DNA of 64,000 bases, from the IMG/VR virus record IMGVR_UViG_2718217789_000006, one strand, 5' to 3'. Both the position numbers and the translations under genes were made by a program. The DNA comes from a virus (Duplodnaviria > Heunggongvirae > Uroviricota > Caudoviricetes). The stretch's first letter is position 1. Each line of letters opens with the position of its first letter. This document shows positions 36,112 to 52,293 of this stretch, in pieces. Below the pieces are notes generated by a model, which worked only from the letters and a program-made list of their open reading frames with translations, was not told the DNA's origin and did not search any database.

Positions 36112-36227
36112 TGATAAACCTCATTACAGATTTAAGGGTGAACAAATCCCTGCCATTGCTGGCATTTTTAATCCGTTGGTATGGTGTTAATATGGCTGGA
36201 GGGTTATCCAGCCGGTGTTTCGTTATT

Positions 36228-36394
36228 CAGGTACAGCGATACTTTTTTTTTACCGGGAGGCATTCACCAGAAATTTTTTGCTCGTCTCTTGCCTGGAGGC
36301 AGGATTCTTTACTGGCATAAATTCCGGTAATCACATTCTGTGATTCACCCGTTATAAGAAAAACCGTCATCATCAGTGCAAATGCTGAAGTCAT
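36228..36394 (-). CDS. Small membrane protein, YdfD-like position (about 55 aa)
   Basis: ATG overlaps the dicB-like stop (ATGA); hydrophobic N-terminus MTSAFALMMTVFLITG…; below ORF-track cut-off. Confidence 0.3.
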
Positions 36395-36579
36395 TGACGT
36401 TCTCCGAAAATACCAAGTTCAAGAAGAGCAATTCGGGAAAGTATGGAATTATCATTGAGCAGATAAGGCTCATATTTCCTCATATTAATGGCATCTTCAG
36501 TAAACTCCCGGTTACTGAGCAGAACACCAATATCAAAACAACCTTCAGACGTATTAACGTTTGGTAATAACGTTTCCAT
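36391..36579 (-). CDS. dicB: Cell-division inhibitor DicB homolog
   Basis: 62 aa, METLLPNVNTSEGCFDIGV…FTEDAIN… closely resembles K-12 DicB. Confidence 0.8.
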   Translation of the reverse strand: METLLPNVNTSEGCFDIGVLLSNREFTEDAINMRKYEPYLLNDNSILSRIALLELGIFGERQ

Positions 36580-36756
36580 TATCGCGTCCTCAACAATGAA
36601 TTTTGTGATGCAGTGCCTGGTGCCTCCAGGTGACGTTAACCAGTTAACAATTAACGCCGGATTAGTTGATGCTCGTTACGCCCGTAAAATACCGCCTTAC
36701 TGCTTTAACTGTTCCGCGTGCGCATAGCCGCATTCACCGCATCACAAAATTCACTT

Positions 36757-36796
36757 TAAAAAGGGCGGATATCCGTTTCCGCCGAATCACCAGAAA
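36757..36796 (-). ncRNA. dicF: DicF-like small RNA candidate upstream of dicB
   Basis: Minus-strand sequence TTTCTGGTGATTC-GGCGGAAACGGATATCCGCC-CTTTTT: DicF-like 5' end plus terminator hairpin and U-run, about 180 nt upstream of dicB. Confidence 0.4.
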
Positions 36797-37098
36797 AGTG
36801 ATAACAGAGGGCGTTGCAGCGGGGTTGTCACTTAAGCGTATGGTCAACCTGACAACCCGGTGTCCTCAGCGGGGAAGGAATAACCCCGCCATACTTACCG
36901 CCGCGCCATTTCGCGGATTGCCACAACCGGAAGCGCACGGTCGAATTAAATTTAACGACTACCTACAGAGAGACGAACTTCGCCGTGCGCTTTCGCGTTA
37001 TGCCCTGACTTTTCAGGGATATATCCTTTTCAGTAAACTGTCAGTGCCGGATTCTTATCCGTGTCCGGCGCACGCACTCTACCTCACCTGTGAATAAA

Positions 37099-37473
37099 TT
37101 AATGATTAATTGATATTTTGTTGTTTGATTCAACTTTCCCATCGGATGTGTGATGCTTTAAATCACAGGAATTAATACTGCTTGCTGTAAAATGATTTTC
37201 AAGGGGAGCTATTCGAATCCCTTTCTTTTTCATTAACAAGCCAAATCCTTTATTAATGATGTTCATTAATTCCAGGAAGTATTTTTCATGTAAATTCTGG
37301 TTATCAGAGAGCTGCTTCTCTTCGCACAGACCGATAAAGGCACGACGCACGTTACCGGATATAGTATCGATGGTTTCTTTTTCTACGGTACTCAGGTCAA
37401 GAGTCGCCAGTTGGGAACGAACTATATTCGCTGCCATTTCCTGGAATTGCATTGGTAAATCTTTAAATTCCAT
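37099..37473 (-). CDS. Hypothetical early-left operon protein (124 aa)
   Basis: ORF co-oriented with neighbours in the early-left operon. Confidence 0.45.
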   Translation of the reverse strand: MEFKDLPMQFQEMAANIVRSQLATLDLSTVEKETIDTISGNVRRAFIGLCEEKQLSDNQNLHEKYFLELMNIINKGFGLLMKKKGIRIAPLENHFTASSINSCDLKHHTSDGKVESNNKISINH

Positions 37474-37495
37474 TATTAGCCTCGTTGGTTAGCTA

Positions 37496-37714
37496 TTAAC
37501 GCGGGTATGTAATCATTCTGGCAATGCTTAATGCCGCTGCTTTTTCCAGATTAGTGATATCCTGCTCCAGAGCGGACAGATTTTCAGCCTGCTTAGCCCT
37601 GGCTTCATTGGCCCATTTCAGATCCTGCGCTGCATTAATTTTCTGGTGCATCCACTCATAAAGTTCATCATCGGTATAGTCTGGCGCGATGATGACGGGT
37701 TCTCGTTTCTGCAT
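37496..37714 (-). CDS. Hypothetical early-left operon protein (72 aa)
   Basis: ORF co-oriented with neighbours in the early-left operon. Confidence 0.4.
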   Translation of the reverse strand: MQKREPVIIAPDYTDDELYEWMHQKINAAQDLKWANEARAKQAENLSALEQDITNLEKAAALSIARMITYPR

Positions 37715-37743
37715 ACTGATTCCTCGCGGTGCTGTTTCGCTTA

Positions 37744-37872
37744 TCAGCCGTTAGATTTTGCCGAACTGGAAAGCGCCTGTTTAAATTCGTTGAAGCTGAG
37801 AGCTTCTTCGCCTTCGGCAAGACCTTCGAAGTATTCTTCGTAAGCCTTTTCCATGATTGTGTCGAAATCCAT
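37744..37872 (-). CDS. YdfA-like small protein (42 aa)
   Basis: Minus-strand translation MDFDTIMEKAYEEYFEGLAEGEEALSFNEFKQALSSSAKSNG; start 1 nt downstream of the preceding gene's stop; below ORF-track cut-off. Confidence 0.4.
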   Translation of the reverse strand: MDFDTIMEKAYEEYFEGLAEGEEALSFNEFKQALSSSAKSNG

Positions 37873-37873
37873 A

Positions 37874-38110
37874 TCACTCACCTGAGTTTCTTTCCAGCCA
37901 GCGACGGGCACCATTTTCGGTTTTAAACGTTTTGCTTTTGGTATACGTCATCGCGGTGAACGTACCGTCCTGGTTGGGGAACACGCCACATACCAGAGAT
38001 TCGCTGTTGCCAAGATCGATAGTATCCATGCTGACCTCATTTCCCCTTAACGCCGGGGTAGCGGAACAAAAACCTGCTGCATAGTTATTAAAGTTGAACC
38101 CTGCCGTCAT
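37874..38110 (-). CDS. Hypothetical early-left operon protein (78 aa), first gene after the left operator region
   Basis: ORF immediately downstream of the OL-like operators. Confidence 0.45.
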   Translation of the reverse strand: MTAGFNFNNYAAGFCSATPALRGNEVSMDTIDLGNSESLVCGVFPNQDGTFTAMTYTKSKTFKTENGARRWLERNSGE

Positions 38111-38215
38111 GTTCTTACGCCTCGGGCTGGCTACTTAACCCCTGACCACTGCCTGGTAACTCGAAGTATTGCCCTGCATTCTGTGGGGCGGGGTGGGTTG
38201 GTATGAAAAGAAGGA

Positions 38216-38252
38216 TACCCATAGGTATTTAAAAAGTAAATACCCATGGGTA
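38216..38252. promoter_or_regulatory. OL-like operator pair (TACCCATAGGTA and TACCCATGGGTA) overlapping a leftward promoter
   Basis: Two 12-bp TACC-N4-GGTA sites 13 bp apart at 38216..38227 and 38241..38252; minus-strand TTTACC-17 nt-TAAATA promoter-like elements overlap them. Confidence 0.5.
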
Positions 38253-38294
38253 AATTTTTGCGGTGTCTTAACTGGTGACTAGTTGTTTGGTGAG

Positions 38295-38714
38295 CTATGA
38301 TGCGTTTTGTGCTTTCTTTTTACGGATTTCTTCGTAGATCATATTGTAATACTGTTTTTTCTCTTCAAGAGTTTTTAATAATTTATCCGCTTCACTTTCT
38401 GGCAGTTCGTCTAAGAGATCTAAAAAAATACGTTGTCGTGGCGTTAGAACCCTTGTTTCATAACTGGAGGCTGTGTTCGTTGATGATGAAACGATACCAT
38501 CCATCCATCCCCGGGGTAACCCAAAGGACTCTTCGATAATCTCCACCATATCATCAGCGATCCGTTTTTTTCCCTTTTTCCCCTCTGGGTACAACATTCT
38601 TGATACATAAGAAGGCTCGCGCCCGATCTTTCTGGCCACGTTAACCGCTTTACCATCGCATTTCTCATCACGAATTTTGATGAGTTGCTGTCGTCTAAAT
38701 TCATATTTGTCCAT
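38295..38714 (-). CDS. Immunity repressor, DicA/RacR-like, lacking a C-terminal peptidase domain
   Basis: 139 aa; HTH …NVARKIGREPSYVSRML…; C-terminal …LTPRQRIFLDLLDELPESEADKLL… resembles the DicA C-terminus; divergent to the cro-like gene. Confidence 0.6.
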   Translation of the reverse strand: MDKYEFRRQQLIKIRDEKCDGKAVNVARKIGREPSYVSRMLYPEGKKGKKRIADDMVEIIEESFGLPRGWMDGIVSSSTNTASSYETRVLTPRQRIFLDLLDELPESEADKLLKTLEEKKQYYNMIYEEIRKKKAQNAS

Positions 38715-38734
38715 AGGTAAATAATAGATGCGAT

Positions 38735-38785
38735 TACCGCAAGGTAAACAACCTGTGGGTATTGGCTTTTGTTTACCTGTGGGTA
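38735..38785. promoter_or_regulatory. OR-like operator cluster between repressor and cro-like genes
   Basis: Three TACC-N4-GGTA-type sites (TACCGCAAGGTA 38735..38746, AACCTGTGGGTA 38750..38761, TACCTGTGGGTA 38774..38785) in the 100-bp divergent intergenic region. Confidence 0.5.
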
Positions 38786-38814
38786 TTCTTTGCTGTGTTT
38801 ACTAAGGAGTAGCT

Positions 38815-39096
38815 ATGGAAGAATTAAGAATATTTCTCAATTCTCTTTCGTCAGATGAACAGCGTATGTTTGCATGCGAGTGTGGTACCAGCATCGGTTA
38901 TCTAAGAAAGGCATTGAGTAAAGGTCAAGTGTTAGGGGCATCGTTATGTGTCCTTATTGAGCGAGCCAGTAATGGTGAAGTTACACGTCAGCAACTAAGG
39001 CCTTTTGATTGGATGAATATTTGGCCCGAGCTGGAAGATACCAAAACGTTAACACAACCACTTTCTAGGAGCTTGATTCATGAAAATCAAGCATGA
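38815..39096 (+). CDS. Cro-like regulator (YdaS/DicC family)
   Basis: 93 aa; …ASNGEVTRQQLRPFDW… resembles YdaS-type proteins; AAGGAG RBS. Confidence 0.55.
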   Translation: MEELRIFLNSLSSDEQRMFACECGTSIGYLRKALSKGQVLGASLCVLIERASNGEVTRQQLRPFDWMNIWPELEDTKTLTQPLSRSLIHENQA

Positions 39097-39505
39097 ACAC
39101 ATCCGCATGGCGATGAATGCCTGGGCGCGTCCTGATGGCGAAAAAGTTCCAGCAGCTGGAATAACCCAGGCTTATTTTGAGTTGGGTATGACGTTCCCAG
39201 AACTGTATGACGACAGCCATCCGGAAGCCCTGGCTCGCAATACCCAGAAAATTTTCCGCTGGGTAGAGAAAGACACCCCTGATGCTGTTGAAAAAATGCA
39301 GGCTCTGTTACCGGCGATCGAAAAGGCGATGCCGCCTTTGCTGGTGGCCCGTATGCGCAGCCACAGTTCTGAATATTACCGTGAGATCGTCGAACGGAGG
39401 GATCGGCTGGTGAAGGATGTCGATGATTTTGTTGCGTCAGCGGTTGTTTTGTATGACCAGATGAATCGCGGCGGCCCGGCAGGGAATGCTGTGGTGATGC
39501 ACTAA
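39080..39505 (+). CDS. YdaT-like (CII-analog) protein
   Basis: 141-aa ORF overlapping the cro-like 3' end, in the position of Rac ydaT. Confidence 0.45.
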   Translation: MKIKHEHIRMAMNAWARPDGEKVPAAGITQAYFELGMTFPELYDDSHPEALARNTQKIFRWVEKDTPDAVEKMQALLPAIEKAMPPLLVARMRSHSSEYYREIVERRDRLVKDVDDFVASAVVLYDQMNRGGPAGNAVVMH

Positions 39506-39527
39506 AAGCACGGTGTTCGGGGGTTTT

Positions 39528-40490
39528 ATGAGCAGCAAGCTTCATGGTCTTGTCTGGGAAGGGTGCGCCTTCACCGGCATGATCTTATCCAGGGTGGCGG
39601 TTATGGCCCGTCTTGCAGACTACAGCAATGACGAGGGCGTGTCATGGCCTGCCATTGAAACTATCCGGCGTCAGATCGGTGCAAGAAGTGAATCCACAGT
39701 GAAATCGGCTATTGCAGAACTGGCGAAAGAGGGCTGGCTGACGAAGGAAGAGCGTAAGGTCGGTGGGCGTAATGTAAGCAATATCTATCGGCTTAATGTG
39801 GAAAAACTCGAAGCAGCTGCGGCGGCGGCGCGTGAGTCATATAAACCGAAAAGAAAAATTAGCCCGGCAAAAAATGACCCGTTAACAGTTGACCCGTCAA
39901 ATATTGACCCCTCAACGGTTGACCCGTCAAATTTTGATGGATCAACTGTTGATAACAAACTGCCGATTAGGGGGGCGATGATTGACCCCGATCCGTCAGT
40001 ATTAAAACCTGATCCGTCAGATAAAAGATCTTCTTGTCCGGACGCTTCGCAACCGGACCCGCAGACGGCTGAACAGGATTTTTTAACCCGACACCCTGAC
40101 GCGGTTGTGTTCAGTGCGAAAAAACGCCAGTGGGGAAGTCAGGAAGATTTGGTGTGCGCACAGTGGATCTGGGGACGAATCGTGAGTCTTTACGAGCAGG
40201 CGGCCAGCTATGATGGCGAGATCACTAGACCGAAAGAACCCAACTGGACAGCATGGGCCAATGACGTTCGCACAATGCGGATGCTGGATGGCAGAACTCA
40301 CAGACAAATTTGTGAAATGTTTGGGCGTCTCCAGCGGGATTCGTTCTGGGTAAAAAACATCATGAGTCCGGCAAAACTCCGGGAAAAATGGGATGAACTG
40401 GTTATCCGCCTGGGGCGTTCGCCTGCGCAGCGTTGCGTGAATCACATTTCTGAACCGGACACTGAAATACCGCCGGGATTCAGGGGGTGA
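39528..40490 (+). CDS. Replication initiator (lambda O-like function)
   Basis: N-terminal winged-helix-like region; direct DNA repeats (iterons) inside the gene; followed by a DnaC-like loader. Confidence 0.65.
   Translation: MSSKLHGLVWEGCAFTGMILSRVAVMARLADYSNDEGVSWPAIETIRRQIGARSESTVKSAIAELAKEGWLTKEERKVGGRNVSNIYRLNVEKLEAAAAAARESYKPKRKISPAKNDPLTVDPSNIDPSTVDPSNFDGSTVDNKLPIRGAMIDPDPSVLKPDPSDKRSSCPDASQPDPQTAEQDFLTRHPDAVVFSAKKRQWGSQEDLVCAQWIWGRIVSLYEQAASYDGEITRPKEPNWTAWANDVRTMRMLDGRTHRQICEMFGRLQRDSFWVKNIMSPAKLREKWDELVIRLGRSPAQRCVNHISEPDTEIPPGFRG
39875..39945. repeat. Origin-like iteron array inside the initiator gene
   Basis: Four to five 12-mers of the form TTGACCCGTCAA / TTGACCCCTCAA at about 15-bp spacing, encoding DP(L/S)TVDPSN peptide repeats. 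Confidence 0.6.
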
Positions 40491-40496
40491 CGTGTC

Positions 40497-41243
40497 ATGA
40501 AAAACATTGCGGCAGTTGGGGTTCTTGAACGTATTCGCAGACTTGCACCACAGGGGCCGGTTCCACCGTACCGGACGGTGGAGGAGTGGCGGGAATGGCA
40601 ACTTGCTGAAGGACGAAAACGCAGCGAGGAGATTAACCGCCAGAATCGCCAGTTGCGGGTGGAAAAAATCCTGAATCGTTCGGGCATCCAGCCTCTGCAC
40701 AGCAAATGCTCGTTTGCAAATTATCAGGTGCAGAACGACGGGCAAAAATACGCGCTGAGCCAGGCCAAATCCATAGCTGACGAACTGATGACCGGGTGCA
40801 CGAATTTTGTGTTCAGCGGTAAAACCGGCACCGGGAAAAATCACCTTGCAGCGGCGATGGGCAACCGGCTGATGGTGAAGGGGCGCAGCGTGATTATCGT
40901 CACCGTGTCTGACGTCATGAGCGTGTTGCATGACAGCTACGACAACGGCAAATCCGGGGAAAAATTTTTACAGGAGCTTTGCGGGGTTGATTTGCTGGTC
41001 CTGGATGAAATAGGCGTTCAGCGGGAGACGAAAAACGAGCAGGTGGTATTGCACCAGATAATTGATCGCCGGACAGCATCACTGTGCAGTGTCGGGATGT
41101 TAACAAACCTGAATCATGCCGCAATGAGTACGCTTCTTGGTGAGAGGATTATGGACCGCATGACCATGAACGGTGGTCGATGGGTGACGTTTAACTGGGA
41201 TAGCTGGCGTCCAAATGTCAGCAATATGAGGGTTGTGAAGTAA
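40497..41243 (+). CDS. DnaC-like helicase loader (AAA+ ATPase)
   Basis: Walker A GKTGTGKNHLA, Walker B LLVLDEIG. Confidence 0.8.
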   Translation: MKNIAAVGVLERIRRLAPQGPVPPYRTVEEWREWQLAEGRKRSEEINRQNRQLRVEKILNRSGIQPLHSKCSFANYQVQNDGQKYALSQAKSIADELMTGCTNFVFSGKTGTGKNHLAAAMGNRLMVKGRSVIIVTVSDVMSVLHDSYDNGKSGEKFLQELCGVDLLVLDEIGVQRETKNEQVVLHQIIDRRTASLCSVGMLTNLNHAAMSTLLGERIMDRMTMNGGRWVTFNWDSWRPNVSNMRVVK

Positions 41244-41264
41244 TTTTGTCCGGAGGAAATTTTA

Positions 41265-42035
41265 ATGGAAACCGTATCTGACGCACTGAAAGCACTGAAA
41301 AAAGCCTCTTCACATGTGGTGGCAGCTCGCCTTGGAATCAGTCGTGAAGAGGCTGTCAACGAGCTGTGGGAACTCAAAAGAAAAGGCGTCGTTGATAAAA
41401 CTGGTCACACCTGGTTTCTGGCTGGCGAAGGTGAATCCCGGGTAACCGAAGAGCGGCCAGTAAAATCTGAAGCACAGGATATGCTGACCGGGGAGGTCGA
41501 ACAAAAAGTTACCGCAGACATGATGATTGAGTTTATCGGTCAGGATGGGGCTAAAACGTGTGAGGAACTGGCGGGTAAGTTCGGTGTCAGTACTCGCAAG
41601 GTTGCTTCCACGCTGGCGGTGGTAACCGCAACGGGGCGGCTGGCACGCGTTAATCAGAACGGTAAATTTCGTTACTGCATGCCGGGCGATAATTTACCAG
41701 CAGAGCCGAAAGCCGCGCTGGTAACGGAAAGTGATGGTAAGGCCTTTCCTCAGCCAGCAGGTGCTGCGTTACCAGTCCGGGAAGCCGCAACACAGGAAGA
41801 AATTAAAACAGAAACTGTGGCGGACATTGTGCAGCCGTTGCCATCGTTTACCGAAACGCAAGCAGATGAGCTGATTTTTCCGTCCCTTCGCAGGGCAAAC
41901 CTGGCGCTGCGCAGGGCGAAAAGTGATGTTCAGAAGTGGGAGCGAGTCTGCGCCGCGCTGCGGGAGCTGAACAAGCACCGGGATATTGTTCGACAGATTA
42001 CTGATTCTTCCCGCCGTGTTGTATCGGAAAAGTGA
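41265..42035 (+). CDS. Hypothetical nin-region protein (256 aa)
   Basis: ORF with AGGA RBS; two N-terminal HTH-like segments by eye. Confidence 0.5.
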   Translation: METVSDALKALKKASSHVVAARLGISREEAVNELWELKRKGVVDKTGHTWFLAGEGESRVTEERPVKSEAQDMLTGEVEQKVTADMMIEFIGQDGAKTCEELAGKFGVSTRKVASTLAVVTATGRLARVNQNGKFRYCMPGDNLPAEPKAALVTESDGKAFPQPAGAALPVREAATQEEIKTETVADIVQPLPSFTETQADELIFPSLRRANLALRRAKSDVQKWERVCAALRELNKHRDIVRQITDSSRRVVSEK

Positions 42036-42476
42036 TTGCCGGAGGCGCTTATGGCAAAAGCATTTACACAAGAAGAGCGGGAAAAAATTAAAGGGCAGGT
42101 TGTTGAACTTGTACGTCTGAGCGGTCGCGAGACGTTGCGGCAACTGGAAGCCAAGACAGGTGCGACAAGATATCTGATGAGTGTTCTCGCCAGAGAGCTG
42201 GTTGCCAGTGGCGATGTATACAACTCTGGTTACGGGTTATTCCCGTCTGAACAGGCGCGTAAGGACTGGCAAAATGCTCGCAAAAAACTCTCAAGGGCAA
42301 AGGTGAAGAAACCTGCAGTGGTTGATCCGGACCTTATCTGGTCGTTACCAGACGGCGAAATACGCCGCTACGACAGGCGCCTGAATATAATCTGTCGCGA
42401 GTGCCGGAAGAGCGAAGCTATGCAGCGTGTACTGGCATTTTATCAAGGAAATGTTAGGTATTTTAGACGTTACTAG
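42036..42476 (+). CDS. Hypothetical nin-region protein (146 aa)
   Basis: ORF directly abutting the previous gene. Confidence 0.45.
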   Translation: MPEALMAKAFTQEEREKIKGQVVELVRLSGRETLRQLEAKTGATRYLMSVLARELVASGDVYNSGYGLFPSEQARKDWQNARKKLSRAKVKKPAVVDPDLIWSLPDGEIRRYDRRLNIICRECRKSEAMQRVLAFYQGNVRYFRRY

Positions 42477-42629
42477 ATTAAAGAGCATTAGTTCAGATGT
42501 GAATTGACATTTTCATGGCGCAGGGTAGAGCCAGCGCGGTTGTCCGCTTTGCGTCAAAACCAGATATTACCAGATTTAGACATATATTCCCGATAGCCCT
42601 GCTCTGATGCTACACTCTGTGCTATTTTC

Positions 42630-43316
42630 ATGACCCCAATAAAAATATTTATGACTATTGCTGATTTCAAACGGCCTAAATTGGAGCTCCCAAACGGGGC
42701 AAACAAACTACTACTGCACTCTTGCTGTGCTCCATGTTCCGGTGAAGTGATGGAGGCGCTTCAGGCCTCGGGAATCGACTACACCATCTTTTTCTACAAC
42801 CCGAACATTCATCCTCAGAAAGAGTATTTAATTCGTAAGGATGAAAATATTCGCTTTGCTGAACAACACGGCGTGCCGTTTATCGATGCTGATTACGACA
42901 CCGACAACTGGTTTGAACGTGCCAAAGGAATGGAATGGGAGCCTGAGAGGGGGATCCGTTGTACCATGTGTTTTGACATGCGTTTTGAGCGGACAGCGTT
43001 GTACGCTGCTGAAAATGGTTTCAGTGTGATCAGCAGTTCACTGGGCATTTCACGCTGGAAAAATATGCAGCAGGTTAACGAGTGTGGGCGGCGAGCTGTT
43101 GCGCATTATCCGGGTATGGTGTACTGGGATTATAACTGGCGCAAGCAGGGCGGCTCGTCCCGTATGATTGAAATCAGCAAGCGCGAAAAATTCTATCAGC
43201 AGGAATATTGTGGCTGTGTGTATTCTCTGCGCGATACCAATCTACACCGCAAATCTCAGGGACGCCCTCTTATCAAAATTGGCCAACTCCACTACGGAAA
43301 AGAAGAGAAGGAGTGA
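42630..43316 (+). CDS. QueH-like (DUF208) epoxyqueuosine-reductase family protein
   Basis: …[14 protein letters not shown]… and downstream Cys motifs ([16 protein letters not shown]) match the remembered DUF208/QueH signature. Confidence 0.6.
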
Positions 43317-43494
43317 TTTTATGGATCACCTTTCTGATTGATTTCATATTGGCGAGGTGACGTGAGTTAAGTAGAATTGCTGCGGGTGCCTGAGGCTGTC
43401 TGCCTCAGGCATGAACACCAAAAGGCAGATAGAGAAAGCCCCAGTTAACATTACGCGTCCTGTAAGACGCTCAACATTAATCTGAGGCATATGG

Positions 43495-44619
43495 ATGCGG
43501 ATGAAAGAATTAAATAAATTCAGAGTGATAGACCTCTTTTGTGGGGCAGGTGGATTATCTTATGGTTTTCTTCATGGAGAGATGTCTGACTACTTTGAAA
43601 GTATCCTTGCTATTGATAATAATGCTGCAGCTATAAATACCTACAATGCCAATTTTGGTTTGCATGGAGTTCAGGCAAATATTGAGGAGTGGGCATCCAG
43701 CAATACTGTTCCTGAGGCTGATGTGGTCATAGGTGGCCCCCCGTGTCAGGGATTCAGTTTATTGAATAAGAATCGTTATGGTGATCACCGAAGAGCATTG
43801 TGGGAGCCTTATATGGATGTCATTGAGCGTTCAAGGGCTTGTATGTTCGTCATGGAAAATGTCCCCGGATTGCTGATAAGCGATGAGTTTGCGGACATTA
43901 CGTTTAGAGCGAAATCCATGGGCTTTATTCTGCTTAATCCAATGGTGTTGAATACTGCTGACTATGGAGTACCTCAGACAAGAAAACGAACGATAGCAAT
44001 CGGTATCAAACGAGAACTCTTCGATGTGCATAGTATTCCGGCGTTCCCGCCAGCACCAACGCATCGTTCCCCTGATAAGGATGTCGCTTTGCCTGAATGG
44101 GTCTGTACGCGTGATGCAATTGGTGACTTACCTGCTCCTGTTGGAACTGATATTCGTAATGAACTTCCTCCGCTGAACTTACATTTTGGGCGTAATCCCA
44201 CACCTGTTTCTCTGGAGCGATATAAAGCGGTTCCACCAGGAGGTAACCGTTTCGATTTACAGAAAAAAAGACCTGATATAACCCCGGCGTGCTGGCTAAA
44301 AAAGAAATCTGGAGGGACCGATTTGTTTGGACGTCTGTGGTGGGACAGACCTTCAGTAACGATTCGTACTGAGTTTTTCAAACCGGAGAAAGGGCGATAT
44401 TTACATCCGGAAGAGGATCGGCCAATAACTCATCGTGAGGCAGCGAGATTAATGTCTTTTCCTGATAATTTCATTTTTACCGGTTCAAAAACTGAGATTG
44501 CAAAGCAGATCGGGAATGCTGTTCCACCGCTATTTGCGGCAAAAATCGCACAATATGTGTATGGAGTTTTGCAGGGACGGTATAAGAATAACATCAGTAA
44601 GAATAGTCAAGCAGCCTGA
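43495..44619 (+). CDS. DNA cytosine-5 methyltransferase
   Basis: Motif I DLFCGAGG, motif IV GGPPCQGFS, motif VI ENVPG; GAGG RBS 7 nt upstream. Confidence 0.85.
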   Translation: MRMKELNKFRVIDLFCGAGGLSYGFLHGEMSDYFESILAIDNNAAAINTYNANFGLHGVQANIEEWASSNTVPEADVVIGGPPCQGFSLLNKNRYGDHRRALWEPYMDVIERSRACMFVMENVPGLLISDEFADITFRAKSMGFILLNPMVLNTADYGVPQTRKRTIAIGIKRELFDVHSIPAFPPAPTHRSPDKDVALPEWVCTRDAIGDLPAPVGTDIRNELPPLNLHFGRNPTPVSLERYKAVPPGGNRFDLQKKRPDITPACWLKKKSGGTDLFGRLWWDRPSVTIRTEFFKPEKGRYLHPEEDRPITHREAARLMSFPDNFIFTGSKTEIAKQIGNAVPPLFAAKIAQYVYGVLQGRYKNNISKNSQAA

Positions 44620-44632
44620 AGGAAATCCAGAA

Positions 44633-45511
44633 ATGAATGGAGATTTGGTTGACAGCATAGTTGGTTTTGCTGAAGCCAGAAAGGAGTTTCATGCCCAATT
44701 GTTACTGAATACGCTCACAATTAATACTGCCGGAGTTGTTAGTAACGCAGATAGCAGTAACAAAAACAGTAAAGCTATAGCAAGAGAAATTGCTCGCTTC
44801 TTGCAGGCTGAAACGATTGGTGAACGTGTTGCAGGGCAAACATCTGGTAATCAGTTTGAGAGTATCTGCGCAGAGTTTATAGAAAAAACCTTTTTTAAAC
44901 TCAGCCACTTACGCCCTGGAAAATGGAATGTACATCAGGTTTCTGGTAGAAACAGATTAGAGATAGCTAAATATGAACAATATGCCCATCTTATAGCATT
45001 GGATAGTGCTGCAAAAAGTAATCCTCAGCTAGCTGCTGCACTGGGGAGTGATTATACGATTTCACCAGATATTATTGTTGAAAGAGAACCTGAATGTGAT
45101 CAAGTTATCAACAGTCCTGAATTACTGGTGGATGATTCTGTTACCCGCATGTCAGCTCTCAGGAGTTCGAATGGTGGGAAACCAATATTACACGCAAGTA
45201 TTTCCTGCAAATGGACAATAAGAAGCGACCGGGCCCAGAATGCTCGTTCTGAGGCATTAAATCTTATTCGCAACCGTAAGGGAAATCTCCCTCATGTAAT
45301 GGTTGTTACTGCTGAGCCTACTCCAAGTCGTCTGGCGTCTATTGCTCTTGGTACTGGTGATATAGATTGCGTGTATCATTTTGCGCTTTATGAACTTATA
45401 TCAGCAGTTGAAATACTGGGGCTCAGCGATGCAGCTGACATGCTTTCCGTGATGGTTAATGGTAAAAGATTAAAGGATATTTCTGATCTTCCCTTGGATC
45501 TTGCAGTCTGA
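44633..45511 (+). CDS. Putative type II restriction endonuclease paired with the methyltransferase
   Basis: 292-aa ORF starting 13 nt after the methyltransferase stop with AAGGA RBS; PD…K-like segment (…SPDIIVERE…ISCKWT…); assignment by context. Confidence 0.45.
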   Translation: MNGDLVDSIVGFAEARKEFHAQLLLNTLTINTAGVVSNADSSNKNSKAIAREIARFLQAETIGERVAGQTSGNQFESICAEFIEKTFFKLSHLRPGKWNVHQVSGRNRLEIAKYEQYAHLIALDSAAKSNPQLAAALGSDYTISPDIIVEREPECDQVINSPELLVDDSVTRMSALRSSNGGKPILHASISCKWTIRSDRAQNARSEALNLIRNRKGNLPHVMVVTAEPTPSRLASIALGTGDIDCVYHFALYELISAVEILGLSDAADMLSVMVNGKRLKDISDLPLDLAV

Positions 45512-45681
45512 CATCTCTACGTAAATAGAGTCTGTCATATTTTAACTGTGATGGCACGTCATTGACTTCAGTACATTTTTACTAACCCGCTTCGCGGGTT
45601 TTGTTTTTTCCTGGCATTCTGGTTTACAATCCACACGCCAGCCTGAACAACTGGCACCTGCTGCGCCAGCAGAGACAACCG

Positions 45682-45954
45682 ATGGCGCACAATACCAAAC
45701 ACCACAATTCTGATGCCGACCCTGCCAGCAGACACGGACGGCGCTCTCACGCATTCAAATATGACTGGTACCAGCATGACCAATGCACTGAAGAACAGGC
45801 CGAGTGGCTGATTCAGAATTACCGCAGACGTGGATACCAGTTTCAGAAAGGCCTCAGTCCTGACTTCCGACGCTGGATAATCTCCGTCAGGCTCCCTTAC
45901 TCCGAACGGCCACCGCGTCCGTCCCGCACATTCCAGCAACGGATCTGGAGGTAA
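45682..45954 (+). CDS. Hypothetical basic protein (90 aa) coupled to the DUF968 gene
   Basis: TAA stop overlaps the downstream start (TAATGTG). Confidence 0.3.
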   Translation: MAHNTKHHNSDADPASRHGRRSHAFKYDWYQHDQCTEEQAEWLIQNYRRRGYQFQKGLSPDFRRWIISVRLPYSERPPRPSRTFQQRIWR

Positions 45955-45955
45955 T

Positions 45956-47005
45956 GTGCGGGTATTACTTCGACCTGTTCTGGTACCGGAACTCGGTCTG
46001 GTTATCGTTAAGCCAGGCCGTGAATCAATGTCAGCATTCCATAACGGCAGAATACTGGTGGAGCCGGAACCAAAAAGCATGCGAGCTCTGCCGTCCGGGG
46101 TTGTACCTGCCGTTCACCAGCCGCTGGCGGAAGATAAATCACTACTGCCATTTTTCAGCGATGAGCGGGTGATCCGTGCTGCGGGTGGCGCTGGTGCACT
46201 GTCTGACTGGTTATTACGTCACGTGAAATCCTGCCAGTGGCTACACGGTGATTATCATCACAGCGAAACCGTCATTCACCGTTACGGTACCGGCGCGATG
46301 GTGTTGTGCTGGCACTGCGACAACCAGCTGCGGGAGCAGACATCTGATTCACTGGATCAACTTGCTCAACAGAATCTGGCCGCCTGGATGATTGACATCA
46401 TCCGTCACGCAATGAATGGCGCACAGGAGCGTGAATTATCTCTGGCTGAATTATCCTGGTGGGCAGTCTGCAATCAGGTGGTGGATGCACTACCTGAGGC
46501 AGTATCGCGTCGCTCTCTGGGATTACCGGCGGAAAAAATCCGCTCCGTATACCGTGAAAGCGACATCATACCGGGAGAACAGACCGCCACCAGCATACTG
46601 AAGCAGCGCACAAAAAATATTGCGCTACCGTCTCACACCCACCAGCAACAGAACCCACCACAGGAAAAGACGGTGGTCAGCATTGCCGTTGATCCGGAGT
46701 CTCCGGAATCCTTCATGAAACGACCTAAACGTCGCCGCTGGGTAAATGAGAAATACACACGCTGGGTAAAGACACAGCCGTGTGCGTGTTGTGGTAAGCC
46801 AGCCGACGATCCCCATCACCTGATTGGTCATGGTCAGGGCGGAATGGGGACAAAATCTCACGATATTTTCACGCTACCGCTGTGTCGGGAGCATCACAAC
46901 GAGCTTCATGCGGATCCGCTGGCGTTCGAAGAAAAGCATGGTTCTCAGGTTGATTTAATTTTTCGTTTTCTTGATCACGCCTTTGCAACTGGCGTGCTCG
47001 GGTAA
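45956..47005 (+). CDS. YdfU-like (DUF968) protein with C-terminal HNH/zinc-binding motif
   Basis: …QPCACCGKPADDPHHLIGHGQGG…LPLCREHHNELH…; directly upstream of rusA. Confidence 0.6.
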   Translation: MRVLLRPVLVPELGLVIVKPGRESMSAFHNGRILVEPEPKSMRALPSGVVPAVHQPLAEDKSLLPFFSDERVIRAAGGAGALSDWLLRHVKSCQWLHGDYHHSETVIHRYGTGAMVLCWHCDNQLREQTSDSLDQLAQQNLAAWMIDIIRHAMNGAQERELSLAELSWWAVCNQVVDALPEAVSRRSLGLPAEKIRSVYRESDIIPGEQTATSILKQRTKNIALPSHTHQQQNPPQEKTVVSIAVDPESPESFMKRPKRRRWVNEKYTRWVKTQPCACCGKPADDPHHLIGHGQGGMGTKSHDIFTLPLCREHHNELHADPLAFEEKHGSQVDLIFRFLDHAFATGVLG

Positions 47006-47017
47006 AAGAGGTGACTG

Positions 47018-47392
47018 ATGCTCATAGATTTGGTTTTACCTTACCCGCCGACGGTGAACACTTACTGGCGACGCCGTGGCAGCACATATTTTGTATCAAA
47101 AGCCGGGAAGCGTTATCGCCGGGCAGTGGCGCTTATTGTTCGCCAGCAGCGACTGAAATTAAGCCTGTCCGGACGGCTGGCAATAAAAATTATTGCAGAG
47201 CCACCGGATAAGCGCCGCCGCGACCTGGACAATATCCTGAAAGCACCGCTGGATGCGCTGACGCACGCGGGGTTGTTAATGGACGATGAGCAGTTTGATG
47301 AAATCAATATTGTACGTGGAAAGCCAGTATCTGGTGGACGTCTGGGGGTGAAGATTTACCCCATAATGCTTGAAGGGCAGGTCAAAAAATGA
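47018..47392 (+). CDS. rusA: Holliday-junction resolvase RusA
   Basis: …RRRDLDN…GGRL… motifs as in E. coli RusA; about 120 aa. Confidence 0.8.
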   Translation: MLIDLVLPYPPTVNTYWRRRGSTYFVSKAGKRYRRAVALIVRQQRLKLSLSGRLAIKIIAEPPDKRRRDLDNILKAPLDALTHAGLLMDDEQFDEINIVRGKPVSGGRLGVKIYPIMLEGQVKK

Positions 47393-48210
47393 AACTGGAA
47401 GATTTACCGAAATACTACTCCCCAAAATCCCCTGGCCTGACCGATGCATCGGCCTCAACGTCAAAAGATGCGCTGAGTATCACTGATGTGATGGCCGCGC
47501 AGGGCATGACACAGAATCGGGCTGAGATGGGGTTTTCTGCGTTCCTTGGGAAAATGGGCATTAGTATGAATGACAGAGAGCGGGCAACAGAATTGCTGAC
47601 AGAATATGCACTCAGTCGGTGTGATCGCGTGGCGGCGTTAAGAAAACTCCCGGCAGAAATAAAACCGGCAGTGATGCGTATTATGGCTTCGTATGCGTTT
47701 GAAGATTATGCCCGTAGCGCGGCGAGCAAAAAACAGTGCCCCTGCTGTCACGGAAAAAAATTTATTGAAAGCGAGGTTTTTACAAACAAGATCCAGTATC
47801 CGGATGGTAAGCCGCCAGTGTGGGCAAAGTGCACAAAAGGCGTGTATCCGTCTTACTGGGAGGAATGGAAAAAAGTCAGGGAGGTGGTAAAAGTTGCCTG
47901 TCCGGAGTGTGGAGGGAAGGGAGAGGTATCCACTGCCTGTAAAGATTGTCGTGGGCGCGGTGTTGCCATTCATCGTGAAGAGTCGGAAAAACAGGGTGTG
48001 CCGGTTTTCAGAAACTGTCAGCGTTGTGGTGGGCGTGGCTATGAAAGATTACCTTCAACGGAGGCATTTAATGCCATATGTAATGTAACCGATGCCATAT
48101 CTCTTGATACATGGAAAAAAACAGTTAAACGTTTTTACGATACGCTGGTGGTGCAGTTTGATATTGAAGAAGCATGGGCAGAACAACAACTGAAAAAGGT
48201 GACCAGATAG
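47389..48210 (+). CDS. Q: Late-gene antiterminator Q (QuuQ-like, Cys-rich)
   Basis: 273 aa with four CxxCxGxG repeats; between rusA and the late region. Confidence 0.6.
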   Translation: MKLEDLPKYYSPKSPGLTDASASTSKDALSITDVMAAQGMTQNRAEMGFSAFLGKMGISMNDRERATELLTEYALSRCDRVAALRKLPAEIKPAVMRIMASYAFEDYARSAASKKQCPCCHGKKFIESEVFTNKIQYPDGKPPVWAKCTKGVYPSYWEEWKKVREVVKVACPECGGKGEVSTACKDCRGRGVAIHREESEKQGVPVFRNCQRCGGRGYERLPSTEAFNAICNVTDAISLDTWKKTVKRFYDTLVVQFDIEEAWAEQQLKKVTR

Positions 48211-48215
48211 CTTTG

Positions 48216-48243
48216 TTGATTTTTCCCGAATCTGTGGTAAATT
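48216..48243 (+). promoter_or_regulatory. Candidate late promoter (pR'-like)
   Basis: TTGATT-16 nt-TAAATT just downstream of Q. Confidence 0.3.
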
Positions 48244-48292
48244 TGCCCTAACGATGGGCGTTTTATGCCTGACGTTAGAAGATTTTTTACAC

Positions 48293-48314
48293 CCCGCCGC
48301 CTGGCGGGTTTTTT
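48293..48314 (+). terminator. Candidate tR'-like intrinsic terminator
   Basis: CCCGCC-GCCT-GGCGGG hairpin plus T6, about 55 nt downstream of the candidate promoter. Confidence 0.4.
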
Positions 48315-48436
48315 ATGACTGAAATCGCGTCAGTACAGTAAACGCGCTGGTGGCGGTGAATACCGGTCTTTCAGCTTGCTGGCTTTTTTGACAAGAGTTA
48401 TTGGTGTGTCACGTTAACCGGAAAAGGGAAAAAAGC

Positions 48437-48634
48437 ATGCTAAAACAGCAGGATATGACAGAAACCGCCAGAGCAGTGTTTAATGAATTAAGCGTCACCG
48501 AACCGGCGACAGTCGGGGAGATTGCGCAGAATACTTACCTTTCACGCGAACGCTGCCAGTTAATACTGACCCAGCTTGTTATGGCGGGTCTGGCAGACTA
48601 TCAGTTCGGTTGTTACAGACGCCTTCAGTCCTGA
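48437..48634 (+). CDS. Small hypothetical protein (65 aa)
   Basis: ATG at 48437 (MLKQQDMTET…) inside the 48401..48634 ORF; no clear SD upstream, so the start is uncertain. Confidence 0.4.
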   Translation: MLKQQDMTETARAVFNELSVTEPATVGEIAQNTYLSRERCQLILTQLVMAGLADYQFGCYRRLQS

Positions 48635-48784
48635 AGGCTTTTTTATTTGTGGTAAATGGGCGGCTGGTGGGTGTTAGGGGCACTCACCAGCCATCTGCTC
48701 ATGCGTCCGGATCACAAGCAAACCTCAGGCCCACTGCTTTGCGCAAAAGCAGAATGAGCCTATCAGAGACAGGCTTAATGATCC

Positions 48785-49843
48785 ATGCTTAATACTGTAA
48801 AAATATCCAGCTGTGAGTTAGTCAACGCCGACTGCCTGGAATTTATCCGGTCGTTACCCGAAAATTCTGTTGACCTGATAGTCACGGACCCGCCGTACTT
48901 TAAAGTGAAGCCCGAGGGCTGGGATAACCAGTGGACGGGTGATGAGGATTACCTGAAATGGCTGGACCAGTGTCTGGCGCAGTTCTGGCGGGTGCTGAAA
49001 CCTGCCGGAAGTCTTTACCTGTTCTGTGGCCATCGCCTGGCATCTGATATCGAAATCATGATGCGTGAACGCTTCAGTGTGCTGAACCATATTATCTGGG
49101 CGAAGCCGTCCGGACGCTGGAACGGGTGCAACAAGGAAAGCCTGAGGGCGTATTTCCCCGCCACAGAGCGCATTCTGTTCGCGGAACATTATCAGGGGCC
49201 GTATCGTCCGAAAGATGCCGGGTATGAGGCGAAGGGCAGGGCACTGAAACAGCATGTGATGGCTCCGCTGATTTCTTACTTTCGTGATGCGCGTGCTGCC
49301 CTGGGGATAACGGCAAAACAGATAGTGGATGCCACAGGAAAGAAAAACATGGTGTCGCACTGGTTCAGTGCCAGTCAGTGGCAGCTACCGAACGAAAGCG
49401 ATTATCTGAAATTACAGGCGCTGTTTGCCCGGGTGGCAGAAGAGAAGCATCAGCGGGGTGAACTGGAGAAGCCCCACCACCAGCTGCTGGAGACGTATAC
49501 TTCACTGAACCGGCAGTATGCGGAACTACAGAGTGAATATAAGCATCTGCGGCGGTATTTTGGCGTGACGGCGCAGGTGCCGTACACGGATGTGTGGACG
49601 CATAAACCGGTGCAGTACTATCCCGGGAAACATCCGTGCGAAAAACCGGCAGAAATGCTGCAGCAGATAATCAGTGCGAGCAGTCGTCCGGGTGACCTGG
49701 TTGCAGATTTCTTCATGGGGTCGGGTTCGACAGTCAAAGCCGCGATGGCGCTGGGGCGTCGTGCAACTGGCGTTGAGCTGGAGACTGAACGTTTTGAGCA
49801 GACGGTCAGGGAAGTACAGGATTTAGTCAGTCAGAACGGATGA
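48785..49843 (+). CDS. Orphan amino-group DNA methyltransferase (N6-adenine or N4-cytosine, DPPY type)
   Basis: N-terminal DPPY motif (…LIVTDPPYF…), C-terminal AdoMet motif (…DFFMGSGST…); no adjacent nuclease. Confidence 0.75.
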   Translation: MLNTVKISSCELVNADCLEFIRSLPENSVDLIVTDPPYFKVKPEGWDNQWTGDEDYLKWLDQCLAQFWRVLKPAGSLYLFCGHRLASDIEIMMRERFSVLNHIIWAKPSGRWNGCNKESLRAYFPATERILFAEHYQGPYRPKDAGYEAKGRALKQHVMAPLISYFRDARAALGITAKQIVDATGKKNMVSHWFSASQWQLPNESDYLKLQALFARVAEEKHQRGELEKPHHQLLETYTSLNRQYAELQSEYKHLRRYFGVTAQVPYTDVWTHKPVQYYPGKHPCEKPAEMLQQIISASSRPGDLVADFFMGSGSTVKAAMALGRRATGVELETERFEQTVREVQDLVSQNG

Positions 49844-49951
49844 TATTGCAGAATTAACCGGGTATCAGGTACGCCCCGAAAATTTTAAATGTCTCACAAT
49901 TCAGACGGTTGACAGTTGTCTGGTTTGCGGGGAGTTTGTTAAAAGAAACTG

Positions 49952-50067
49952 GCATGGTGAATCCCCCTGAGCGGAGGGGCATATCAGCGCAGGTGTTTCT
50001 ACTCTATCCTTTCTGTGCGGGTTCAGGTGCTGATACTGAACTCACCGGGAGGCACCCGGCACCATGC
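49952..50067 (+). ncRNA. Conserved structured non-coding element (candidate sRNA), copy 2
   Basis: Same reverse-complementary outer arms and flank hairpins as copy 1, with a different central segment. Confidence 0.35.
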
Positions 50068-50091
50068 ATATGGTTAACAGACACGTAGCGA

Positions 50092-50117
50092 AGCCCCTCT
50101 CCGGAGGGGCTTTTTTT
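50092..50117 (+). terminator. Intrinsic terminator upstream of nanS-p
   Basis: AGCCCCTC-TCCG-GAGGGGCT hairpin followed by T7. Confidence 0.65.
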
Positions 50118-50346
50118 ATGGGCAAAAAAAGCCCGCGCTGGGAGACGCGGGCGGCAAGGAATAAACAACAAAACGTGAAGTAATATTTCAGCTGGCGAAT
50201 AATACCCCATGGTAATCACTCTGCGCAACTGCGCGGCCTTTTTCGAATTGCGGGCTGTAAGTCTCCCTTCTGCCATTGTCCTGTAACTTCCGAACTTCAG
50301 CCCGCTCTTTATCTGATTCAGTACACTATCCCGGCCGGGAGGATTC

Positions 50347-52293
50347 ATGACATTTAAACATTACGATGTGGTCAGGGCGGCATCGCCGTCAGACCTTGCT
50401 GATGCACTTGCGCAAAAAATTCGTGAAGGATGGCAACCATACGGTGGGCCGTTTTCTTCGTATACGGATGATGGCGCAGCACTTATTCAGGCGATTGTCG
50501 CAGAAGGTGATGTGAGCACACCTGTTGTGGTGAAGCCGACAGGTGGAGAAGGTGCAGTAATCAGTGCCACCAGCGACCCGGAGTATTACTTTGTTGTGGT
50601 TCTGGCAGGGCAGTCAAACGGCATGTCGTATGGTGAAGGTCTTCCGCTGCCGGAGACATATGACCGTCCGGAGCCGCGTATTAAGCAACTGGCGCGTCGC
50701 AGTACGGTGACACCGGGTGGTGTCGCCTGTAAATATAACGACATCATTCCGGCGGACCATTGTCTGCATGATGTGCAGGACATGAGCCGCCTTAACCATC
50801 CGAAAGCGGACCTGTCAAAGGGGCAGTACGGAACCGTGGGGCAGGGGCTGCATATCGCCAAAAAATTGCTGCCGTTTATACCGGCGAATGCGGGCATTCT
50901 GCTGGTTCCGTGCTGTCGTGGTGGTTCAGCGTTCACCACCGGAGCTGATGGCACATACAGTGACGCGAGTGGTGCCTCGGAGAATTCAACCCGCTGGGGT
51001 GTGGACAAGCCGCTGTATAAGGACCTTATCGGTCGAACAAAAGCAGCACTGAAGAAGAATCCGAAAAATGTGCTGTTTGCCGTGGTGTGGATGCAGGGGG
51101 AATTTGATTTTGGCGGTACGCCGGCAAATCACGCAGCACAGTTTGGTGCGCTGGTTGATAAATTCCGTGCAGACCTGGCGGATATGGCAGGTCAGTGCGT
51201 CGGTGGCTCTGCTGGCGGTGTTCCCTGGATATGTGGAGATACGACGTATTTCTGGAAGCAGAAGAACGAATCCACGTACCAGACGGTGTACGGCAGCTAC
51301 AAAAACAAAACGGAAAAGAATATCCATTTCGTACCGTTCATGACGGATGAGAACGGGGTGAATGTGCCGACGAACAAACCGGAAGAAGACCCGGACATTC
51401 CGGGTATCGGATATTACGGTTCGAAATGGCGTGACAGCTCAGCCACCTGGACGTCACAGGACAGGGCGAGCCATTTCAGTTCATGGGCTCGCCGCGGGAT
51501 TATTTCCGACCGTCTGGCAACGGCGATTTTGCGCCATGCGGGAAGAGTGGCGCTAAACGCGGGGGCATCATCGACAGTATCAGAGGTGCGCCCGTCATCG
51601 CCTTCCGGTGCAGAAGCCACAGGCGTCACAACACTGCTCTCTTACCTTGCCAGCGAGTCAGAGGGAAGCCTGAAAGTACAGGGATGGTCAGCCAGTGGCG
51701 GCAAGGCAGAAGTGGTCAGCGATGCGGAGGGAACCGGAGGTAAGGCAGTGAAGCTGACCAAGGAAGCCGGTAAAAGCAGCTGGGTGCTGGAGTACGCCGC
51801 GGGCAACGGTGCGGCTCTGTTACAGAAAGGGGGGCAGATTCGCTGCCGCTTTAAGGTTTCGGGAGCGCTGGCTGCGAACCAGTATGTTATGGCGTTTTAC
51901 TGGCCGGTATCTTCACTGCCACAGGGCGTTGCCCTGACCGGAGACGGGGGGAATAACCTGCTGGCAGCGTTCTACATCCAGACAGATGCAAAAGACCTGA
52001 ATGTGATGTACCACAATGCGAAAGTGGCGACAAACAACCTGAAACTGGGAAGCTTTGGCGCATTTGATAACGAATGGCATACGCTGGCTTTCCGCTTTGC
52101 CGGGAATAACAGCCTTCAGGTGACGCCGGTTATTGATGGTCAGGATGGCACACCGTTCACGCTGACGCAGTCACCGGTCAGTGCCTTTGCGGCGGATAAA
52201 CTGCATGTGACAGACATTACCAGAGGTGCGACTTACCCGGTACTGATAGACAGCATTGCGGTGGAAGTGAACAGCACAGACACTGCGGCATGA
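50347..52293 (+). CDS. NanS-p-like sialate O-acetylesterase (intact copy)
   Basis: 648 aa; first late gene; SGNH-esterase-like core (…VVVLAGQSNGMSYGEG…); paralog of 1773..3623. Confidence 0.7.
   Translation: MTFKHYDVVRAASPSDLADALAQKIREGWQPYGGPFSSYTDDGAALIQAIVAEGDVSTPVVVKPTGGEGAVISATSDPEYYFVVVLAGQSNGMSYGEGLPLPETYDRPEPRIKQLARRSTVTPGGVACKYNDIIPADHCLHDVQDMSRLNHPKADLSKGQYGTVGQGLHIAKKLLPFIPANAGILLVPCCRGGSAFTTGADGTYSDASGASENSTRWGVDKPLYKDLIGRTKAALKKNPKNVLFAVVWMQGEFDFGGTPANHAAQFGALVDKFRADLADMAGQCVGGSAGGVPWICGDTTYFWKQKNESTYQTVYGSYKNKTEKNIHFVPFMTDENGVNVPTNKPEEDPDIPGIGYYGSKWRDSSATWTSQDRASHFSSWARRGIISDRLATAILRHAGRVALNAGASSTVSEVRPSSPSGAEATGVTTLLSYLASESEGSLKVQGWSASGGKAEVVSDAEGTGGKAVKLTKEAGKSSWVLEYAAGNGAALLQKGGQIRCRFKVSGALAANQYVMAFYWPVSSLPQGVALTGDGGNNLLAAFYIQTDAKDLNVMYHNAKVATNNLKLGSFGAFDNEWHTLAFRFAGNNSLQVTPVIDGQDGTPFTLTQSPVSAFAADKLHVTDITRGATYPVLIDSIAVEVNSTDTAA

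Follow-up and report, generated by a model that had tools for sequence, protein, structure and literature searches.

Queuosine-pathway gene queH and an NgoMIV-type restriction-modification pair in the nin-region cargo slot of a lambdoid prophage

What brings a gene of the queuosine pathway next to a restriction-modification pair on a phage, and do these neighbours act together? The question is raised by a 64,000-nucleotide stretch of viral DNA (IMG/VR record IMGVR_UViG_2718217789_000006; the window in what follows), in which three co-oriented open reading frames (ORFs) on the + strand, 42630..43316 (228 residues), 43495..44619 (374 residues) and 44633..45511 (292 residues from its ATG), occupy the nin-region cargo slot of a lambdoid prophage. 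A preliminary description, made from the letters of the DNA, took them for a QueH-like gene, a cytosine-5 DNA methyltransferase and the cognate nuclease of the latter, and offered two options for QueH, an unrelated moron or a part of a nucleic-acid modification function. We conclude, with a probability of about 0.8, that the slot holds two independent accessory modules, queH on the one hand and a GCCGGC-type methyltransferase-nuclease operon seated in a hok/sok locus on the other, each with a role that we propose below. Both modules belong to known families and are already so named in RefSeq; the finding is correct and mostly ordinary.

From 42400 to 45700, a segment spanning all three genes, the window is 100% identical to Escherichia coli O157:H7 strain 9000 and to many UK 'Z' isolates. 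For strain 9000, the RefSeq names of the products are 'epoxyqueuosine reductase QueH', 'DNA cytosine methyltransferase' and 'NgoMIV family type II restriction endonuclease'. The carrier is a complete-looking lambdoid prophage without stx, adjoining a second prophage. To the left of the three genes are genes of the replication region (helix-turn-helix/O-like, ATP-binding protein, DUF1627 and DUF977) and to the right are DUF968 (YdfU), RusA and Q; coordinates and flank annotation thus confirm that the genes lie, as first described, between the replication genes and ydfU/rusA/Q. The extents of the three ORFs also hold, except that the starts of queH and of the methyltransferase gene need a small shift.

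Identity of QueH and distribution of the two modules

The first gene, queH (42651..43316, + strand), encodes a 221-residue protein (RefSeq WP_000150294.1) predicted to be a cobalamin-independent epoxyqueuosine reductase. The protein matches PF02677 (QueH) over profile positions 1-174 of 175 (E 1.1e-65; 221.5 bits against a cutoff of 23.5), aligns with the solved QueH of T. maritima (7lc5; E 7.8e-22) and keeps the cysteine motifs CCAPC, RCxxC and CGC. The DUF208 similarity proposed at the outset thus runs from end to end and extends well beyond the CCAPC segment; moreover, seven cysteines (C32, C33, C36, C111, C114, C194 and C196) are invariant among nine sequences. The aligned cellular QueH proteins come from other Gammaproteobacteria, mostly Enterobacterales (Erwinia, Providencia, Proteus, Photorhabdus, Ewingella, Pseudomonas and Lysobacter), and are 78-86% identical to the phage protein. 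The counterpart of Asp13 of the T. maritima enzyme is a Cys here, as it is in all the gammaproteobacterial orthologues aligned. Translation most likely starts at ATG 42651, the RefSeq start, and not at the upstream ATG 42630, which would give 228 residues, because the cellular orthologues begin at the former and because the seven upstream codons are not conserved in the phage HannyBb.

The two modules differ markedly in their distribution. Among 5426 complete E. coli genomes, QueH is found in 995 (~18%), the methyltransferase-nuclease pair in 60 and all three genes in 57. We also inspected 80 IMG/VR prophage loci with an identical QueH: hok comes next in 54 and the pair in 20 (plus one in which it is incomplete), two have other content and three are too short to tell. 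A prophage of sequence type 131 (ST131) has QueH followed by hokD, without the pair. Conversely, the pair occurs without QueH in strain A34, in 4 of 26 IMG/VR viral loci, and in Klebsiella and Cronobacter. Spacing between the QueH stop and DUF968 varies among the 80 loci and forms several classes (~886, 1557, 1942, 2201 and 3009 nucleotides without the pair; ~2691 nucleotides with it), so the slot holds cargo variants beyond hok and the pair. In the A34 prophage, the cassette stands beside a convergent gene pair, 'sce7726 family' and 'beta family' (locus L003, 3866..5501), at the place that QueH takes in the window; these two genes may be another defence-type cargo of the same slot.

The distributions bear directly on the possibility that the three genes act as a single island for nucleic-acid modification, in which QueH contributes to a DNA or RNA modification tied to the restriction-modification pair. 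At the locus itself only adjacency and shared orientation point that way, and phage 7-deazaguanine DNA modifications that block restriction do exist (PMC6884629); the viral deazaguanine systems surveyed in 2019, however, include no QueA, QueG or QueH (PMC6884629). The prophage region has 56 annotated features, none of them a DpdA/TGT-like or preQ0-synthesis gene, and the similarity of the phage protein to the aligned housekeeping QueH proteins argues in the same direction. Moreover, the modules differ 16-fold in frequency, each occurs without the other, and between them lies a hok remnant that has a promoter-like site of its own. A single island is hardly credible in the face of these observations. 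The option that QueH belongs to a modification function at this locus is therefore abandoned, and that of an unrelated moron is the one we retain within the reading of two independent modules.

The restriction-modification pair and its hok/sok scaffold

The nuclease gene (44633..45511, + strand; 292 residues) encodes a type II restriction endonuclease of the NgoMIV family, with G^CCGGC as the predicted target. The protein matches PF09015 (NgoMIV_restric) over the whole profile (positions 1-275 of 275; E 6.1e-127; 423 bits against a cutoff of 23.2) and is matched by PADLOC as REase_II (E 8e-126). Against NgoMIV of known structure (PDB 1fiu/4abt; E 9.6e-119), 185 of 281 aligned residues are identical (66%), and the stretch SISCKWTIRSDRAQNARSE is shared without change. 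R233 and D40 align with R227 and D34 of NgoMIV, which we take to contact the outer G:C pair. E76, D146, K193 and E207 correspond to E70, D140, K187 and E201, the catalytic residues of NgoMIV (PMC2532715), R197-S-D199-R200 is identical to the RXDR motif that reads the CCGG core (PMC3413111), and Q69 aligns with Q63, a residue in contact with the outer base pair (PMC2532715, PMC3413111). Identity at this level, together with the retention of the catalytic and recognition residues, makes a PD-(D/E)xK-type fold and GCCGGC specificity well-supported predictions. The 292-residue ORF had at first been read as a putative restriction nuclease, and both the full-length PF09015 match and the identity to a crystallised PD...K...E enzyme bear this out and contradict the absence of a nuclease fold.

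The resemblance to the type IIF system of N. gonorrhoeae (G^CCGGC; 1FIU/4ABT) extends to the order of the genes, an m5C (5-methylcytosine) methyltransferase gene lying directly upstream in the same orientation. Like NgoMIV, the enzyme would form a tetramer, require two GCCGGC sites and cut G^CCGGC. In contrast to the NgoMIV system, the pair described here is carried by a lambdoid prophage inside a hok locus, and its recognition and cleavage are predicted from the sequence.

The methyltransferase gene (43501..44619, + strand; 372 residues) was described at first as that of a canonical m5C enzyme, and all the evidence agrees: the protein matches PF00145 (184.6 bits against a cutoff of 22; E 4.2e-54) and TIGR00675 dcm (154.5 against 100.65), and has the motifs DLFCGAGG, GGPPCQGFS, MENVPG, QTRKR, REAARLMSFPD and GNAVPP (I, IV, VI, VIII, IX and X) in order. 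ATG 43501 is most likely the start, and not ATG 43495 (374 residues), because other copies of the cassette have GTG or GGG in place of the latter.

As judged from these comparisons and from those that follow, the cassette is a hybrid that joins an NgoMIV-type nuclease to a methyltransferase lineage otherwise partnered by HNH proteins. In 80 genome loci with NgoMIV-family nucleases 59-78% identical to that of the window, the upstream methyltransferase is only ~25% identical to that of the window, and the same holds for ~25 viral loci in which the nuclease is at most 78% identical. The lineage seen in the window accompanies the nuclease only where the latter is at least 80% identical, that is, in E. 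coli, Klebsiella michiganensis, Cronobacter dublinensis and a few viral contigs. By sequence, then, the methyltransferase is not of the canonical M.NgoMIV lineage; it belongs to another m5C lineage and is longer (372 residues, against the ~310-330 codons spanned by the upstream match of the canonical partners).

The next relatives of the methyltransferase, 66-77% identical, are found in Yersinia kristensenii, Edwardsiella tarda, Idiomarina, Klebsiella pasteurii and Salmonella Cerro, and are followed by an overlapping or abutting gene for an ~325-residue HNH protein. Coordinates of these pairs in our extracted loci are 5001..7092 (L005), 5001..7068 (L006 and L007), 4272..6344 (L008) and 3001..5071 (L235 and L236). 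Like the cassette of the window, these are two-gene operons with the methyltransferase first and the nuclease second, often on prophages or islands; unlike it, they encode a nuclease without similarity to NgoMIV. Searches on the HNH partners matched only the generic HNH motif (McrA, IscB) and no named restriction enzyme. HNH-paired and NgoMIV-paired members differ hardly at all in the region between motifs VIII and IX. The two groups of methyltransferases therefore probably share one specificity, and the HNH proteins may have that site, or one overlapping it, as their target; they may represent an unrecognised family of restriction enzymes. In a P2-like prophage of Y. kristensenii, a PvuRts1I-like/SRA-domain gene and a HicB gene (L005, 3472..4898) lie directly upstream of the methyltransferase-HNH pair. 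PvuRts1I-like/SRA-domain proteins are modification-dependent nucleases, and a methyl-directed and a methyl-protected system would thus stand side by side in this organism.

To read the specificity of the methyltransferase from the canonical NgoMIV partners was an approach that we rejected, the similarity being ~25% and confined to the catalytic motifs. This distance and the HNH-paired relatives weigh against a simple cognate pair, and leave the required viability of the pair as the guide to specificity: from the viability of 60 genomes with an intact nuclease gene we infer that the two enzymes share their target sequence. The earlier description of the nuclease as cognate to the methyltransferase is thus upheld as regards the identity of the nuclease and the pairing, and has to be qualified in that the methyltransferase lies outside the canonical M.NgoMIV lineage. 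The specificity of the latter might then be not exactly GCCGGC but broader or overlapping (for example a CCGG-containing set) and brought from the HNH-partnered lineage, with GCCGGC as a subset. The HNH-paired relatives, the shared region between motifs VIII and IX, and the distance from the canonical partners would all fit such an enzyme, which we regard as unlikely, if by no means negligible. If the HNH enzymes also target GCCGGC, the specificity of the methyltransferase is simply GCCGGC; a broader specificity, for its part, is compatible with the reading of two independent modules as long as GCCGGC is covered.

The cassette is set in the frame of a hok/sok locus, the usual occupant of this position. 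A remnant of that locus lies at 43349..43490 (+ strand), collinear with the QueH-hokD intergenic region of the ST131 prophage, and consists of a promoter-like site (TTGGCG-17-TAGAAT; 43349..43377, + strand) and ~107 nucleotides of hok mRNA leader, and lacks the mok/hok coding part. When the ST131 prophage is aligned with the window, the two match from the stop of QueH to ~43490, part ~62 nucleotides short of the hok start, and match again at the terminator (45584..45600); the hok toxin ORF (~50 residues) is not present. A match to the Rfam family RF01794 'sok' covers 43384..43564 (61 bits against a gathering score of 59). Downstream of the nuclease gene, the segment 45512..45610 (+ strand) comprises the 3' tail of the cassette and an intrinsic terminator, with a stem at 45584..45600 followed by a T-run; this terminator is the single terminator-like site in our scan, at 45584, and resembles the hok terminator of the ST131 prophage. 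The tail is common to the A34 copy and is not part of the hok locus. The hok leader also precedes the methyltransferase gene in E. coli copies without QueH, and does not do so in Klebsiella. The toxin gene is named hokD by PGAP in the ST131 copy, and hokW/MokW-like in phage records. GC content is 0.41-0.46 over 43250..45500, against 0.50-0.54 in the flanking DNA.

As reconstructed from these alignments, the E. coli cassette is made up of hok leader, methyltransferase, nuclease, a 72-nucleotide tail and a hok-type terminator, ~2.1 kb of methyltransferase and nuclease genes having replaced the toxin reading frames. The pair would have been built into the hok/sok locus in place of the mok/hok coding part. 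Because the promoter and leader and the hok-type terminator remain, transcription of the pair is probably driven from the former hok promoter, and read-through from pR would add to it during lytic growth. The hok flanks probably also allow transfer of the cassette, by homologous recombination, between prophages that have a hok locus. One addiction/defence module thus replaces another within the same scaffold.

The first description of a type II pair, with the methyltransferase gene followed by that of the nuclease 13 nucleotides later, proved accurate: the genes are adjacent, co-oriented, intact and co-inherited, and the 13-nucleotide gap between stop codon and ATG contains AGGA. Orthologues of both proteins, ~80% identical and encoded by the same adjacent pair, occur in K. 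michiganensis, C. dublinensis and several viral contigs. The ratio of nonsynonymous to synonymous substitution rates (dN/dS) between the window and strain A34 is 0.10 for the nuclease and 0.13 for the methyltransferase; against Klebsiella, dN is ~0.15 and dS is saturated. The pair is thus maintained by selection. The methyltransferase would protect the GCCGGC sites of the lysogen and the prophage DNA, and the pair would restrict unmethylated incoming DNA and, like the hok/sok locus that it replaced, would penalise loss of the prophage.

Several points tell against this reading. The promoter-like site matches 9 of 12 consensus positions, and the scan gave no more sites than a shuffled sequence. 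Selection within E. coli is barely tested, since identity reaches 99% or more in 59 of the 60 genome copies. The literature that we searched holds no methylation, cleavage, expression or tRNA data for this locus. Alternatively, the nuclease could be inactive or silent and the methyltransferase work alone, protecting phage DNA from GCCGGC-type restriction in other hosts or having an epigenetic function. Solitary methyltransferases are common on lambdoid phages, and a second methyltransferase gene of this prophage lies at 48785..49843; moreover, recent decay would be invisible among nearly identical copies, and there is no controller protein to delay expression of the nuclease. The nuclease ORF, however, is intact in every copy examined and keeps all its catalytic and recognition residues, it has been retained beside the methyltransferase in orthologous pairs that diverged by ~20%, and its dN/dS of 0.10 speaks for a maintained function. 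A silent nuclease is thus improbable in our view, and a working pair the preferred interpretation.

Avoidance of GCCGGC was considered as a sign of activity and rejected. The site occurs 14 times against 40 expected under a Markov model, and the interval from 35594 to 51120, with the cassette in it, has none. Several other GC-rich palindromes are depleted to a similar or greater degree in both prophages (observed/expected, 0.35 for GCCGGC, 0.14 for GGCGCC and 0.09 for CGCGCG), so the depletion is uninformative on activity. As far as we are aware, Eco56I is an E. coli enzyme that cuts G^CCGGC.

A likely role for QueH on phages

E. coli is unable to make corrinoids de novo and needs an external supply. 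All 5426 E. coli genomes have queG, so that lysogens carrying queH have two non-orthologous enzymes for one step. QueG depends on cobalamin for this step (PMC4646009), and QueH is its non-orthologous replacement (PMC5372724). In contrast to cellular QueH, the protein studied here is encoded by a temperate phage whose host has a QueG of its own. The nearest cellular queH genes stand in ordinary chromosomal contexts (two were inspected, those of Erwinia and Providencia), and together with the 78-86% identity of the proteins this marks the phage gene as a captured housekeeping gene. Without need of cobalamin, the product would reduce epoxyqueuosine (oQ) to queuosine (Q) at position 34 of tRNA-Asp, -Asn, -His and -Tyr, and would back up the cobalamin-dependent QueG of the host. 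A B12-independent backup for the conversion of oQ to Q is the most economical reading and probably the right one.

QueH had seemed unexpected on a phage. This is true of deposited phage genomes, from which it is nearly absent, and not of E. coli prophages, on which it is far from rare. Among 50,697 deposited phage records, HannyBb is the only one named as an isolated coliphage with a near-identical (95%) QueH; its gene (locus L004, 5001..5687) is annotated 'hypothetical', and shows that queH travels on a viable phage. Between the window and HannyBb, dN/dS is 0.046 (dS 0.29), and QueH is thus under strong purifying selection within phages. In PHROGs v4 the family is phrog_3217, labelled 'unknown function' despite its identification as QueH by Pfam and RefSeq.

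Two points weigh on the other side. The promoter scan upstream of queH returned no site that passed, and we know of no phenotype that separates oQ from Q, so the benefit of QueH is a conjecture. Strong purifying selection in phage lineages whose hosts all have queG, as well as the PHROGs label, could also be taken to mean that QueH serves the phage otherwise than by topping up queuosine, for example through escape of tRNA from an anticodon nuclease or through a non-tRNA substrate. The very high conservation with cellular QueH over the whole protein, however, argues for the same substrate and chemistry, and no companion gene points to a different pathway; such a role is very unlikely. Returning to the backup function, we propose tentatively, and at slightly less than even chances, that prophage queH is a lysogenic-conversion gene that frees the last queuosine step from cobalamin in about one sixth of E. 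coli, with a hybrid restriction cassette embedded in hok/sok beside it.

Prophage setting and significance

On the left of the cargo slot, the replication module ends with a DUF977 gene (42036..42476, + strand; PF06163, E 4.3e-28), and the same gene lies 5' of QueH in the ST131 prophage. On the right are a small phage ORF (45682..45954, + strand; phrog_1212) and an HNH-like DUF968/YdfU gene (45956..47005, + strand; identified by a profile match and by RefSeq annotation). The same right flank is found 3' of hokD in ST131 and 3' of the methyltransferase-nuclease pair in A34 and Klebsiella. Downstream of Q, the methyltransferase gene at 48785..49843 encodes a second, solitary enzyme of the N6/N4 type (PF01555, E 7e-44) and is followed by a match to the STnc100 small RNA family (49923..50123; 148 bits against a gathering score of 47) and by a DUF6645 gene (50347..52293), which presumably takes the position of the toxin genes of Stx phages. 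In the neighbouring prophage there are genes for tRNA-Met(CAT) and tRNA-Arg(TCT) at 442..694, and at its end, beside the integrase of the prophage studied here, three tandem DUF1076 genes (~29494..31494), which we take to belong to an NleG-type effector family.

Neither module alters what is known of how these enzyme families work. The hok-scaffold architecture, the change of partner of the methyltransferase, and the prevalence of and selection on QueH on E. coli prophages are, however, absent from the literature that we searched. A predicted GCCGGC system is present in an O157:H7 lineage of cattle and humans in the UK and in scattered O111, O103 and other strains, and if active it would bear on the range of phages and plasmids accepted by these strains, on how stably the prophage is kept, and on the m5C methylome, a modification poorly detected by PacBio. 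As for QueH, a function is identified for a PHROG family labelled as of 'unknown function'. If the role proposed here is correct, temperate phages rewire the modification of the wobble position in the tRNAs of their host, and QueH would be the first Q-pathway-specific enzyme acting after insertion to be recognised on phages. The ~18% of complete E. coli genomes with a second, B12-independent epoxyqueuosine reductase on a phage would then offer a natural system for the physiology of oQ as compared with Q.

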